Assembly (NCBI GenBank): GCA_951406725.2
Contig: OX597821.1
Span: forward strand, 45,322,001 to 45,386,000
Source of the DNA: Octopus vulgaris
Taxonomy: Eukaryota
Length of the DNA: 64,000 nucleotides
Direction of reading: 5' to 3'
In this document: positions 10,512 through 49,946 of the stretch, piece by piece
Position numbering within the stretch: position 1 is the first letter of the stretch
Layout: every line of letters begins with the position of its first letter
Notes under the pieces: generated by a model
The model's database searches: none
The model's input: only the letters and a program-made list of their open reading frames with translations
What the model was told of the DNA's origin: nothing
Translations under genes and position numbers: made by a program

Positions 10512-11376
10512 TATAATTTCAACAATTGAGGGTAAAATTAATTAATTATTAATCAATTTCACCAAGTGTTCAGTATGCAAAGGGACCATTTAAGGCGAAT
10601 TCAAGTTATTACATTATATAAAAGGGCTTAGTAAAATACGTACTCAAATAACCTTAGCATTTGATTTTTAATGTCCTTACCCCCAAACTTTTGTGAGTTA
10701 AATTAAGCAAACGCTATATATGAGAGAGATTTTCTTTAAGTATTAGAAATAGCTTTAAAAAAAGTTTTTAGCTGCTATTTCTAATGAGTTCAGTATGCGG
10801 CGAAGTAATTTATTTTACTAAGCCCTTTTATATAATGTAATAATTTGAATTCGCCTTAAATGGTCCCTTTGCATACTGAACACTTGGTGAAATTGATTAA
10901 TAATTAATTAATTTTACCCTCAATTGTTGAAATTATAATTAATCTCCCTCTAATTATTGCTTCGGATTTTACCGAAATAAGCATAGCGTTTGATGATTTT
11001 AACCCACGCTGGTGGAAAGGGGAGAACAGAAATGATTCACTTGCTTATTTGGGTTTGCTGGCACTGTTAGTTAAGAGCGGATCTTCGAAAGGGTATGTTC
11101 TTACTTTCAGTGTTTCCAAATCCAAACCAAGGAATTTATGAGCTGAAGAGAGAAATGTTGTTTTGACTAATCTTGAAACGTACGTACTCAAATAACCTTA
11201 GCATTTGATTTTTAATGTCCTTACCCCCAAACTTTTGTGAGTTAAATTAAGCAAACGCTATATATGAGAGAGATTTTCTTTAAGTATTAGAAATAGCTTT
11301 AAAAAAAGTTTTTTAGCTGCTATTTCTAATGAGTTCAGTATGCGGCGAAGTAATTTATTTTACTAAGCCCTTTTAT
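10512..11376 (+). mobile_element. Hammerhead-bearing non-coding fold-back retroelement, family HA: 127-bp inverted arm plus 1.36 tandem units of 544 bp, in (TA)n
   Basis: 10512-10638 is the reverse complement of 10811-10937 (one mismatch). 10637-10831 repeats directly at 11181-11376. (TA)n lies on both sides. Confidence 0.85.
11129..11199 (+). ncRNA. Type I hammerhead ribozyme
   Basis: AAGG-AATTTA-TGAG [CTGAAGA 11143-49] GAGA..TCTT [GAAA 11175-78] CGTACG TA^ CTCA-AATAA-CCTT. Helix III is short and palindromic; predicted GUA cut after 11186. Confidence 0.8.
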
Positions 11377-14300
11377 ATATATATATATATATATATATAT
11401 ATATATATATATATATATATATATATATACACAAACGGATATAAATACACAGTTAAAATAATAGAAGTGAAAGTTAATATATATACAAAATGAAAGTAAT
11501 AATAATGAAACCTATTAAAAGTGAAAGTATTTTCTCACATTACAATGGAGATGTTATTGTTTCACTTTTGACACGTAATACTGAAATAGTATAAGAGATA
11601 AGAGATTGCTCCGGGCTCGCATCAGGTAAGAAGTTGAAATTTTTTGAGCCTGTGACACTGCATGGACCCTAAGTAAGGCATGTGTAAAATTTGAATAAAA
11701 TCGGTTGGGTAGTTCTCGAATTTTAGTGATGCATACATACAGCAAAAAAAAACAAAAAAACGTAAAGACATATGTACCTAAAACTTTCCTTGTATCTACA
11801 AGTAACATATTATCGTTAAATTCTTTATGTCTAAAACATCAGATCTTTCGGATATTATAGTGCACTCGAAAACAAAATAACGTGAACACTCTCGTTTGTC
11901 CTACTTATCTGGATAATCCTAATCTCGGTGAGATTCAGAATAATGAAAACAGTTACACAGAGATCATATCATACACCCATAACTCAAGTTCTATCATCCT
12001 TCTCAGTGGTTATGAAATGAATTATAACAAAATTATGGAACATAATACAAAGATGATAATTCTGTATACCTAGTTAATAAATTAATGAAAGAAAGCAATG
12101 CAATAATTCTCATCCTAAAATACTTGAATTCAAACTCTTTACAATCTACAGAAAATAAAACTCTAAATTTAAAATAAAAAGTGAACAGGATGATAACGTA
12201 AGCAGTGATAATAATACTCTTAATATAGCAAAAACAAAGGTTAGACATGAAGGTCCAGACTCACACGAACGCGAGTCAATTCAACCAAATAACATCTTAA
12301 ATTGTGTCTAGAACGATTTTCATTTTTACCGTTGGAGTAACTGGTTAGTTCACAATGTTATCTACAGATGTAGTATTACTACATCAAACGAATACCAAGT
12401 ATTATATGGGACTAGATCCTTTACATGCTGTAACAAGTTACATACACACAGCCTTAGGAATATAAACTTAATCGATTAGTTAAGGGGATATTTAATCTTA
12501 ACAAAATAAAAAATACAAAATACGAACTACACTTCTTACACTGAAAACAAGAAAGATTGCAGATTTTGCTCTAATGAAACGTTACATATTTTATTAGGTA
12601 ACAATTAATTACTTAATCTAAGACAGGAATGCTTCTTCTCATGCAAGCATAAAATTTTAAAGTCATTTAAATTTCATAATACAATTCTGCCTTGGTAAAA
12701 TAATAAACTGTAGTGGAGTACAATCTTTCGGTTGACTCGAGGGTTATTGCATAAAACATAGTAAGATATATCTCTACTATAAGAATATAAACAGGACTTT
12801 AAAATGACTTAATCCTCACTATATAAGAAAATGATACTTATACCTGTAAATTTTTTTATGATTATGAGTGTAAACGGGTGTGTATGCGTGTGAGTACTGT
12901 GTCGAGTCTTTGGACTTATAAGGTTACCCACTTTTTATGGTGTATAAGCGATCGAAATCACATGATGTCATCTGAATGGGATGCCAGTTTGTCGCAGGGT
13001 TATTCATTTACTGCAGTAGCATCTGATGTTAGCAAATAATAATGGAGAGAATTGTGAACTTTTTCTGTCATTTCAATGTTATAATGCAATCATCCACGAA
13101 ACGATTACTGCATAACATACAAGCATTCGCTCGTGAAACACGCGTAAAGACTATGGAATTTATGATGTTATAAGAAAAAACTTAAACCAACTCTCTTATT
13201 CAATTCGTGTATCTGTGTGTGTGTGTGTGTGTGTACATATATATGTATGTATATATATATATATATATATATATATATATATATATATACATACATACAT
13301 ACATACACACATACATACACACGTATATATATATTTATATATACATATACATGTATATGTACATACATGTATACATATAATTACACACACACTACACACA
13401 CTCATACATGTGTGTGTATATGATTTGTGTGTATGTTATGAGAGAGAGGGAGAGAAAGAGAAAGAGGGAGGATTTGATTAAAACCATTACTATAACTTAT
13501 AAGCTTTCTAATCGAACCTGCTAATTTATTGTTGTTCTTAATCGATGGTGATATTAATATTGGTGGAGTGTGAAACCGAGGATATGAACTCAAAGCTCAG
13601 TTTTATGATTATATTAGATATGACTAGGCGTAAGATTAGAGAAACTCTCCTCTTTAATTCCGGATCTAATAATCATACAACACTCCACATAGGCCTCCTG
13701 CTATAAACAAATCTTTTCACGAGACATCGACTCTTGCATTCGGAGACGGAGTACAGCAGCAGCCTCAATGTTTAACTGAAATGTTATAAGCAATAGAGTA
13801 TAATTCAAGAATCGATTATCAACTCGGGTACAAATTTTGGAAGAGTGTTTAATCGATTCTATTACTTGGCTGATAATCTTTTAATGAACCCTGAGAGGGA
13901 TAACAAGCAAAGTCGTCATCGGTTGGTTTTGAACTCAGTTTATAAAGTGATATAACTGAATTCCATAAGATATTTAGTTAAGTATCTCACCGTTTCTGCC
14001 ACTCCCCTGTCCACGTTAGAAATTATTGAGAATATGCTTAGGATCCTGGAAACAATGGGACCAATAAGGCAGTGGGAAACATTTTCCCTGTCCCTGTAGA
14101 TAAATGTTTTCTTACTCAGATACACTTTTATTGATTTATTTTGTAAAAATTGTAACTGACTGAGTGACTGGGATCTGTGGATAACTGGTCATATCATGAT
14201 GCTGGCTCTGTATTATGTCTATGAGAAAGACACTAAAATTTTGAGAGCGCAGTTATTTTTGTATTAACTAGGAAACACAATATAATATATCATTACATTT

Positions 14301-47440: not shown

Positions 47441-49647
47441 GACAGGCGACGGGAGAGAACATACCAAATATGGAAATAGTACGATGATGGATATAGTATG
47501 TGTTTGCATATTTGTGTGCTGTTATTCGTACCCTACGGTGCATACATAGTGCATTGCTGTAATTAAATAAGTTAAGGCGTTTTTCTGGGTGTTAGAATGA
47601 ATGGTGTTAGTTATATTCGTTATAGCTGAAACAGTTGTTGGGTGTGGCTAAATACGATTGCAATGAAGTACGCAGTACTTTATTGCAATCACATTTAATC
47701 AATAATGATTAAGAATCATTTAAAATTTTATGTTGGCGGGGGCAACCTTTAAATTTTATAGTTTTAGATTTTATAGAAAGCTTATATTAGTTGTTATAGA
47801 AGCTGTTACATGTTAGTTAATACTGTTCGTTTTTAATCTATATTTTTCAGTTTATTTTAGTGAATTTGTGTTATGTATTAGAAGTTGCAATAAAATTACT
47901 TATGTTAAATTCAATTTAAATATTTGGTTAAGTGAATGAGTATAAGTAGATGAATGAGTTATATGTAAATTGTAGATCCCTGTTTTGTTTTTGGTTCAGA
48001 TATTTGGGTTTCGGATTTAGTTCCACTGCACGACACTTGGAGTAGTGAGGCTATAGTCTTCTACTATAGCTCCGGGTCGATCAACGCTTTGTGGATGAAT
48101 TGAGTTAAAATAAAACCATGCCGTTTACATACATACACCGGTTTTATTTGTGTGTGTGCTCACTCGTGCGCTCGCACGTATGTGTACATATGTCTACGCG
48201 TGTGAGTCTTGGTATCTGTGATTGTCATTTCCCTACCGCTTAACAACCGGTGCTGCTTTGCCAACGTCCCATATAACTTTGCGGTTCGGCAAAAGAGCCT
48301 GCTCGAATAAGTACCAGACCTAAAAGCAAAAACATAAATAGTGGAGTCGATTTGTTTGGCTAAAATCTTCCAAAGCAGTGCTCCAGTACGGCTGCTGTCC
48401 AATGACTTGAGCAAGAATAAAAAAAAGGAAAGCAAAAGATACATATAAGATGGAAAACGTGGACAGTGTCGCTTCGGCGAAACGAAACACGTATGTACGT
48501 ATCTGTAAAATAATGTCGACCATGATAATTGTTCCAACAAAGCGCTCCTTTAACGCACGGCATTCAATTTGGCACAAATAAAGATACCACCAGATCAGCT
48601 ACTACTACTACTACTACTACTACTACTACTACTACTACTACTACTACTACTACACACATACACACACAGAGGGAGACATACATTTTAGTAAGTTAATATT
48701 CAAAATTTCGCAGTTGCCTTGTAGGACTTCAAGACCCTCGCAAATAACAGCGATAATCGGATAAACAGCCTTATTTTCTAAGAAACTACATTTTTAGTTT
48801 ATAGTGGGTTAGAAGTTCTTTAGTTCTCATCTCTGGTTGATGTTGCTATGTGTGTGTGTGTGTGCGTATGTGTATGTGTGTGTGTGTGCGTATGTGTGTG
48901 TATGTGTGTGTATATGTGTGTGTGTGTGTGTGTGTGTGTGTGTGTGCTTGTGTGTGTGTGTATATTTGTATGTGTGTGCGCGTGTGAGTGTGTGTATGTG
49001 TGTGACCAGCAATATATTGCGGTGACTCCTAGATCTTAGTTAATCAATAACGATACTTGGCATTCATACAAGAAGGCTAATCACATGCAATGACCATAAA
49101 TTGTGTGATCGGTTAAAGTTTTAAAAAAGAGAATAAAAGTTCATTTGCTCATTGCGTTCGCTTGGCACGAAACTCTTAGTGATTTAGAGGCAAGATTAAA
49201 ATGTTAACATAGAAATTAACATAGCCCTAATAAATCTTTTAAGTACTCCCTTCTATAACACTCTTGACGATACACAAACACTCATATACATAAAATATAT
49301 ATATATATATATATATATACATATGCACACACAAAGACACACACACACACGTACGCACACGCACATATATCTCTCCCCACCTTTTTCTCTCTTTATAACT
49401 ACATCTATTGCATATATACATTTATGCATACATATACATACATACATACATATATATATTATCAATCCAGGCAAAATACTTCATAAGCTCTCTCTTGGTA
49501 CACAAGGCAAACAATATTGTTCAAATTAGTGAAGAACTCCAAATATTCTTATGGCAGGGTTCAAGGTTATGCTTCATCACCATTCTATATTGTAAATCCA
49601 TGGTTGTGCTCCAGAAAAAAAGTGGTTTTTACGCAGAGTGATATAAA

Positions 49648-49946
49648 TAAGACAAGTTATTAGTAATGGTCTTTACATATTTTCCTTTATTAGTACAAAT
49701 TTGGCTTACTGCTGTTTCGAGATCTCAATACAGGTTCGTTACTCAAAGCTTTACTCAGTCGTTCTATTAATCAGTTGAGCAAAATAGAACAACCAATTGA
49801 ATAACTAATTTTTCTCAACTCATCAATAGACCGATTGAGTAAACCTATCAGTAAGAAACCTATAATGACTACCGGAAACAGCTGTAAGCCAAATTTGCTC
49901 TAATAAAGGAATTATATGTAATGACTATTGTTTATACCTTGTCTTA
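49648..49946. mobile_element. Old, diverged fold-back element (~140-bp arms) ending in (TA)n, with a hammerhead 3' half
   Basis: TAAGACAAG...TTCCTTTATTAG..CAAATTTGGCTTAC.GCTGTTTC is mirrored by GAAACAGCTGTAAGCCAAATTTG..CTAATAAAGGAA...CTTGTCTTA. Confidence 0.7.

Follow-up and report, generated by a model that had tools for sequence, protein, structure and literature searches.

What are the hammerhead-bearing inserts that adjoin (TA)n tracts in a stretch of the Octopus vulgaris genome, and how did they get there? The window analysed, 64,000 nucleotides in length, comprises positions 45,322,001-45,386,000 of contig OX597821.1, from a genome of 2.8 Gb in 227 contigs. It has a GC content of 34% and contains 83 (TA)5+ runs. 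An original prediction, made from the letters of the window, listed eight inserts, named here by their start (10512, 23323, 24844, 25803, 28371, 31750, 39111, and 49648), and took them for a distinct fold-back system without open reading frames (ORFs). All eight inserts are found at these positions, each adjoining (TA)n. Three of them are assigned to Penelope-like elements (PLEs) and four to animal retrozymes; for the remaining one, 49648, no parent was found. The two identities proposed earlier, non-autonomous retrozymes and extreme PLE truncations, each hold, for different inserts. We estimate a probability of about 0.85 that the PLE 3' ends and the tandem-repeat pieces both entered (TA)n by the same Penelope-type target-primed reverse transcription. 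This reading builds on observed ORFs and tandem units, on a pair of fixed 3' ends in each family (designated long and short), on the (TA)n flanks, on a rule pairing long with short ends, and on the uniformity of arrays.

The PLE-derived features of the window are:

31750-31972, unstranded: family C insertion, two-armed, with the hammerhead and 68-nt tail of a young autonomous PLE (from terminus-ORF linkage)
31832-31888, minus strand: family C hammerhead of the left arm, with an A6G core (descriptor scan)
31889-31954, plus strand: family C hammerhead of the right arm, with a cut predicted after 31947, a local duplication of 13 nt, and a stem II base of U-U
24844-25083, unstranded: family HB insertion, the two-armed 3' end of a PLE; long end left, short end right
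24948-24985, minus strand: family HB hammerhead of the left arm, with a cut predicted after 24952 and a stem II of 2 bp that has A-A at its base
25015-25052, plus strand: family HB hammerhead of the right arm; predicted cut after 25048
23328-24820, minus strand: family G, one-armed and 5'-truncated, comprising the 3' terminus and 3' untranslated region (UTR) of an older PLE rich in AT
23479-23528, minus strand: family G hammerhead; core 23525, predicted cut after 23482, 11-bp stem II

Inserts 31750, 24844, and 23323 are, as judged from sequence, 5'-truncated 3' ends of Hydra-clade PLEs. The clade placement was made by sequence motifs of the ORFs in relatives elsewhere in the genome; no insert copy in the window holds an ORF, and the window is devoid of PLE ORFs. 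Longer relatives of insert 31750 reach several kilobases. The protein from one such locus gave 16,256 first-look candidates, and among the 150 that were scored, many contain open frames of 500-720 amino acids. The 31750 terminus lies within 10 kb of the reverse transcriptase (RT) in 19 of 20 ORF loci (10-kb loci), where it is placed downstream of the ORF, inverted upstream of it, or as a direct 5' repeat. The Hydra ORF beside the family C end in locus L054, which taken singly might have been a chance neighbour, is shown by these loci to be linked to it.

In the full-length copies L109 and L111, the hammerhead and tail lie directly upstream of the ATG of a 713-residue ORF. The ORF contains the motifs RIRWR (RWR), DKT, YRDD, CNCx5C, YIG, CDLC, and CMH. 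It is composed of the RT followed by a C-terminal GIY-YIG domain, and its homologues carry PF01541 and PF00078. The CxCx5C linkers of the Hydra-type ORFs are CNCPDKTTC, CNCKDESSC, and CTCRDKTTC, and CCHH was judged absent by eye. The Hydra clade is described by RW(K/R), DKT instead of DKG, a CxCx5C linker, CxxC/CxH, canonical hammerheads, and (TA)n insertion (PMC8557442). The octopus elements share with it the C-terminal GIY-YIG domain, DKT, RW(K/R), CxCx5C, a 3' hammerhead, and (TA)n targets. The pseudo-long terminal repeat (pseudo-LTR) to pseudo-LTR length of family C, 4.8 kb in L109 and 5.4 kb in L111 with a microsatellite-like 3' UTR of 2.5-3 kb, exceeds the <3 kb given there, a length that is descriptive and not diagnostic. 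Hydra-1_Obim of Octopus bimaculoides also prefers (TA)n according to the supplement of PMC8557442. By eye, families C, HB, and G differ from it in protein and hammerhead sequences, and the HB hammerhead resembles the 3' end of Hydra-2_Amil in the same supplement.

In family G, GIY-YIG coding sequence is found upstream in 8 of 19 loci, and L361 retains a decayed full ORF with RIKWK, DKT, and CxCx5C. HB is linked to an ORF through a sister subfamily, in which 7 of 30 loci have an ORF end ~1.2 kb 5' of the hammerhead; the ORF was recovered from thumb to endonuclease only.

The 3' UTR of family C (L109:3413-5878; L111 reverse 3394-6463) is a degenerate TA/TG microsatellite of 2.5-3 kb that is copied with the element. 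Family C PLEs may spread their own targets in this way. In 16 of 20 loci (L109-L128), the UTR contains a small two-armed A545-like retrozyme (for example, L109:3766-3967), which is a passenger fixed in the master copy.

The retrozyme-derived features of the window are:

10512-11373, unstranded: A545 insertion; inverted arm 10512-10638 (minus, long end) and 1.35 tandem units 10637-11373 (plus, short end)
11139-11190, plus strand: A545 hammerhead; core 11143, with a cut predicted after 11186 (GUA), a helix III that is palindromic, and a stem II base of G-U
28370-28716, unstranded: D590 two-armed piece, truncated before the hammerhead; family core CCGAUGA (U4C)
39116-39575, unstranded: E644 piece; 23-bp inverted arm (short end) and plus-strand arm to the long end
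39147-39259, plus strand: E644 hammerhead, with a cut predicted after 39254 (GUU) and a loop II of ~73 nt
25803-26165, plus strand: H360, a single unit from an older tandem retrozyme of ~360 bp; copies 78-87% identical
25970-26020, plus strand: H360 hammerhead; core 25976, predicted cut after 26014 (GUC), 5/6 pairs in helix I

Inserts 10512, 28371, 39111, and 25803 are read from their sequences as pieces of ORF-less tandem repeats, i.e. animal retrozymes, with predicted ribozymes. A545 is a 545-bp tandem family with copies 96-100% identical (326 matches from 40 scored of 1,130 candidates). D590 has units of 588-591 bp and 1,967 candidates, with copies 100% identical over the query, and E644 has 644-bp tandem units and 1,180 candidates. 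The ~360-bp H360 family has 1,584 candidates. The units of the four families contain no ATG-initiated ORF longer than 44 amino acids, have a GC content of 32-41%, and show z-scores of -6.0, -4.3, -4.8, and -2.7 for the predicted circular fold. The hammerhead core is intact in 102 of 107 A545 units. The D590 hammerhead, with its U4C core, lies outside the window copy; U4C lowers hammerhead activity in vitro, yet supports viroid infectivity (PMC3088659). In a diverged relative, L219, both sides of stem II are altered, from GAGA/TCTC to GGAA/TTCC. The H360 core is slightly more conserved than the remainder (0.94 versus 0.89, P=0.036), and nearly every change at a base pair affects one side alone, which gives weak support. 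Four contig sets from sequencing runs cover A545 and show the 545-bp head-to-tail joint, but the runs are not on record as RNA and genomic tandems explain the joint equally well. One A545 contig starts at the predicted cut site; contig starts cannot show RNA ends.

One 3' structure is predicted for A545, D590, and E644 alike, made up in order of a hairpin, a long-range helix, and an AT-rich hairpin. The long-range helix encloses the short end and shows compensatory differences, and the AT-rich hairpin stands before or at the long end.

The eight inserts belong to eight separate families, not to the two proposed earlier (10512, 28371, and 39111; 24844 and 31750). Insert 10512 is 67% identical to 28371 over ~160 bp, and 39111 has one 16-mer in common with 28371. 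Inserts 24844 and 31750 give no mutual blastn match, and their parent ORFs are 36-37% identical in amino acid sequence in the C-terminal part. Fold-backs are recovered by masked self-blast at 10516, 24918, 28466, 31818, and 49650. The positions of the inserts stand, and three extents are corrected: 39111 to 39116-39575 with an inverted arm of merely ~23 bp, 49648 to a start at ~49460, and 23323 to 23328-24820 (~1.5 kb). As predicted, six inserts carry a type I hammerhead, with cores at 11143+, 25019+/24981-, 31896+, 39152+, 23525-, and 25976+. Inserts 28371 and 49648 are without a complete motif in the window, as foreseen, and relatives of each family hold one. An extra core in insert 31750, 31879-, carries the A6G change. 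The motifs are present, but the description "well-formed" does not fit most stem II bases. The canonical G10.1-C11.1 pair is present in 23525 and 25976 only; the remaining motifs have G-U, U-U, or A-A at this position, and the site of 39152 is GUU.

The fold-back is a mode of insertion and not an element type. In the five families scored (A545, D590, E644, C, and HB), each arm is an outward-facing 3' end at one of two fixed sites, and the 5'-5' junction between two arms differs from copy to copy. Two outward 3' ends with a variable junction are a published PLE architecture. Craig et al. 2021 (PMC8557442) describe an inverted truncated copy and a tail that is often at one end only. The octopus insertions likewise display partial tandems, an inverted 5'-truncated copy, and a one-ended tail, with tails of 68-190 nt as compared with the 30-40 described for Hydra PLEs.

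Among 96 insertions scored, 62 have both ends at standard sites, and these comprise 60 long+short, one long+long, and one short+short. The rest have a non-standard end (14), are one-armed (18), or are cut by the locus edge (2). A further 20 A545 arrays include 14 long+short and six with one or no outward end. The long+short rule is therefore followed by 74 of 76 scorable two-armed insertions. Insertion lengths range from <0.2 to 6.1 kb, and A545 arrays contain up to 11 units. A545 divergence is 0.19% within an arm, 0.38% between arms, and 2.35% between insertions, so each array and both of its arms likely derive from one template. The end rule and array uniformity suggest that a single RNA, multimeric or circular, was copied from two ends in the manner of PLEs.

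Junctions in families C and HB (L023-L052, L013-L022, and L211) often lie at short palindromes just 5' of the hammerhead core. The clustering may mark sites where joining is favoured or may stem from best-hit ranking in the search, and no claim is made.

Insertion into (TA)n is supported by precision at the 3' ends and not by closeness, because 21% of random sites have (TA)n within 300 nt. Outward 3' ends reach (TA)4 within 22 nt in 164 of 172 cases, compared with 4.9% of random sites. A target-site duplication is indistinguishable inside the (TA)n flanks of the 10512, 28371, and 39111 families.

In the proposed mechanism, each strand of (TA)n, which is self-complementary, would be nicked by the GIY-YIG domain. 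Two complementary DNAs (cDNAs) would start, one each, at two fixed RNA sites 68-190 nt apart, and each would extend for a variable distance, from <100 nt to 11 units. Head-to-head joining of the cDNA ends would yield the fold-back. The retrozyme template would exceed one unit and would most likely be a circle, produced when the hammerheads cleave the RNA and its ends are ligated; the retrozymes of coral, mussel, and axolotl do circularise (PMC7229834). More specifically, though we rate this at slightly under even odds, the array may be a direct print of a PLE protein dimer that copies one circular RNA from both (TA)n nicks simultaneously, its subunits starting at the short and long sites. With similar caution, falling just short of a balanced bet, we place both start sites within the covarying RNA structure common to the three young families.

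The mechanism has precedent in a PLE of the anole, for which nicking and extension of both strands and two internal RNA start sites that define the tail were described in vitro (Frangieh et al. 2024, PMC11167929). That protein is a predicted dimer, and hammerhead cleavage requires the protein. The octopus system resembles this Anolis Poseidon in two RT start sites, cutting and extension of both strands as proposed here, and an AT-rich target. Poseidon belongs to another clade and its start site is without homology to the target, unlike here, where the next 2-6 nt beyond 7 of 8 mapped ends match a TA run (a raw count, without a null).

Several points weigh against the shared route. Hammerhead mutants of the anole PLE insert in vitro all the same (PMC11167929), and most octopus motifs have weak stem II bases. 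A Pfam scan of the family C ORF recognised nothing relevant, and the link between HB and its ORF runs via a sister subfamily ~90-92% identical. A motif search of the loci examined found no autonomous element with the 3' structure of A545, D590, and E644. Insertions with non-standard ends (the 14 above) and one-armed copies occur among those scored, and in only 52 of 77 A545 units is no other insertion closer than the opposite arm. The loci were taken from best-hit searches. Eleven HB loci were recovered with a query of long+short form; the rule holds for 63 of 65 insertions without them. Lastly, two family F loci (insert 49648) with >5 kb upstream contain no PLE ORF.

The young retrozymes A545, D590, and E644 may have been moved by another PLE clade (Neptune, Poseidon, or Naiad) or by a long interspersed nuclear element (LINE) rather than by Hydra elements, a possibility that we consider real but doubtful. 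Their covarying 3' structure differs from the C and HB termini, and a preference for (TA)n or microsatellites is also described for Naiad and Neptune (PMC8557442). A pair of fixed ends, arms in inverted orientation, and partial tandems characterise PLEs and not LINEs. In addition, cephalopod Naiads are described as long inactive, whereas copies of the young retrozymes match one another at 96-100% and open frames close to 700 amino acids occur in Hydra family C.

It is unlikely that the same classes of element built their arrays from linear multimeric read-through RNA or by unequal crossover, with the hammerheads as weak passengers. A uniform parent array would likewise yield uniform daughters, and the divergence data do not separate this from copying of a circle. 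The non-canonical stem II bases, GUU sites, and U4C core agree with weak hammerheads. In Xenopus, 8 of 9 retrozyme dimers are reported uncleaved, in a preprint that favours local amplification (10.64898/2026.07.22.740005). Crossover after insertion fails to explain the 5'-truncated partial units at the junction and the single haplotype on both inverted arms. Helix I also covaries across families, with 28 of 32 Watson-Crick pairs against 9.7 in permuted data in a partly circular test, and the circularisation of retrozymes in three animals speaks for a circular template.

Miniature inverted-repeat transposable element (MITE)-like or foldback DNA transposons, or hairpins from slippage at (TA)n, would account for small, near-perfect inverted arms set in TA. 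They are very improbable in view of the variable junctions, unequal arms, one-armed and multi-kb copies, and the three families that lead to RT ORFs; neither fixed terminal inverted repeats nor a uniform length is found, and for A, C, D, E, and HB the variable junctions refute a DNA transposon. The claim that all eight inserts form one new ORF-less fold-back ribozyme system, which the lack of ORFs in the window copies had favoured, has next to no likelihood with three coding parents and eight separate families.

The four retrozyme families have in common with known animal non-LTR retrozymes (PMC7229834; 10.64898/2026.07.22.740005) the ORF-less tandem units with one type I hammerhead each, low GC, strong predicted self-pairing, and co-occurring PLEs. 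At 545-644 bp, the young units are longer than those of PMC7229834 (150-450 bp) and fall inside the range given in the preprint (51-972 bp). The octopus arrays bear the PLE insertion footprint itself, and no parent pseudo-LTR was found for them, unlike in Xenopus (10.64898/2026.07.22.740005). The main text of PMC7229834 does not contain the words octopus, cephalopod, microsatellite, or inverted. As in PLE minimal hammerheads (PMC4209133), helix III is palindromic, helix I is short, and single motifs number thousands per genome. Opposite-strand pairs 100-700 bp apart are ascribed there to truncated PLEs. Loops II of 50-90 nt (D, E, and F), one U4C family, and one A6U family differ from that description. 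An octopus repeat annotation assigns 6.83% of the genome and 190 families to PLEs, and its main text is without the words hammerhead, ribozyme, and retrozyme (PMC13282606). A literature search, with most subscription papers out of reach, returned nothing on octopus retrozymes or retrozyme insertion ends.

The classes of these inserts are already known from other animals, and the families are apparently undescribed. They therefore provide a good test system, not a new kind of element. Two questions are named as open in the literature: by what process PLEs produce insertions in tandem and inverted form, and which machinery mobilises animal retrozymes (PMC8557442, PMC7229834). Both become testable in vitro with the young open-frame Hydra elements, the near-identical arrays, and the near-strict end rule of this genome. 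The long/short end rule and within-insertion array uniformity are the least-known points and are worth following. If true, the copying of a circle by a dimer would be the first insertion-site evidence of how animal retrozymes move, and would specify which RNA, which protein, and which target to combine in reconstituting the reaction.

A descriptor scan finds seven canonical type I hammerhead motifs in the window, spread over six inserts. Dinucleotide shuffles of the window (n=50) contain a mean of 0.02 and a maximum of one, bearing out the excess. The descriptor was tuned stepwise on the window itself, so this count is not blind. The fair test is a sample of 58 evenly spaced 10-kb stretches (580 kb), which contain 13 motifs in 11 loci, as compared with none in each of 10 shuffles. 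The sampled density is ~1 motif per 45 kb (95% confidence interval 26-84 kb). One insert per 8 kb, from which a genome-wide load was inferred earlier, is a local excess only: six loci in 64 kb are enriched relative to the sample (P=0.0016). Extrapolation gives ~63,000 motifs per genome (33,000-107,000), a large ribozyme load, about five-fold below that implied by the window. PMC4209133 gives 2,000-9,000 per genome; the octopus genome is larger and the descriptor is another.

Rfam lists no hammerhead among 150 of 265 matches in the window, the other output being microsatellite or hairpin noise, and none among all 30 matches examined for 23400-26350. In a genome search with RF00163, 73 of 263,217 candidates were scored and six matches resulted, which makes it unfit for counting. 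The genome adds an estimated 33,000-107,000 hammerhead motifs that go undetected by Rfam.

The remaining hammerhead-related features of the window are:

49460-49946, unstranded: family F, an older two-armed insertion; arms hold the 3' half of the hammerhead only, with a ~190-bp tail left
26175-26345, plus strand: family J, an abundant repeat end with a minimal hammerhead-like motif at 26217-26252 (absent from the earlier list)
27869-27953, minus strand: decayed hammerhead-like motif with a 7-bp helix I, core 27946 (absent from the earlier list)

A complete hammerhead is present in 9 of 26 family F loci, and no tandem unit or ORF parent was found in the loci examined. Two hammerhead-like inserts had been overlooked, 27946- and 26221+. 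Family J has a CUGUNGA core, with U at core position 6 and position 7 differing between copies. It occurs at seven loci in 580 kb, with three intact motifs against none in 10 shuffles. A (GA)n/(TA)n tract lies ~75 nt away from the 27869-27953 motif, which has one 44-bp homologue adjoining (TA)n in L283 and is probably another decayed PLE end. Outside the window, further hammerhead families occur in L057, L059, L073, L075, L116, L117, L190, L193, L196, L217, and L222; several have loops II of 40-80 nt, and L222 is two-armed.

Other repeats surround the inserts. An inverted pair of 142 bp, 93% alike (22614-22755 and 25141-25282), stands around the G and HB inserts and possibly represents the ends of an old DNA transposon. 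A repeat family at 28752-29231 and 49961-50232, 89-96% alike, shares TA tracts with inserts 28371 and 49648 and has ends reminiscent of non-autonomous elements of the Helitron type, a label that we presume. Further repeat copies, often split by microsatellites, lie at 740-1168, 9512-9874, 19099-19480, 26426-26814, 33162-33567, and 62481-62885, and we take them to be similar to short interspersed nuclear elements.

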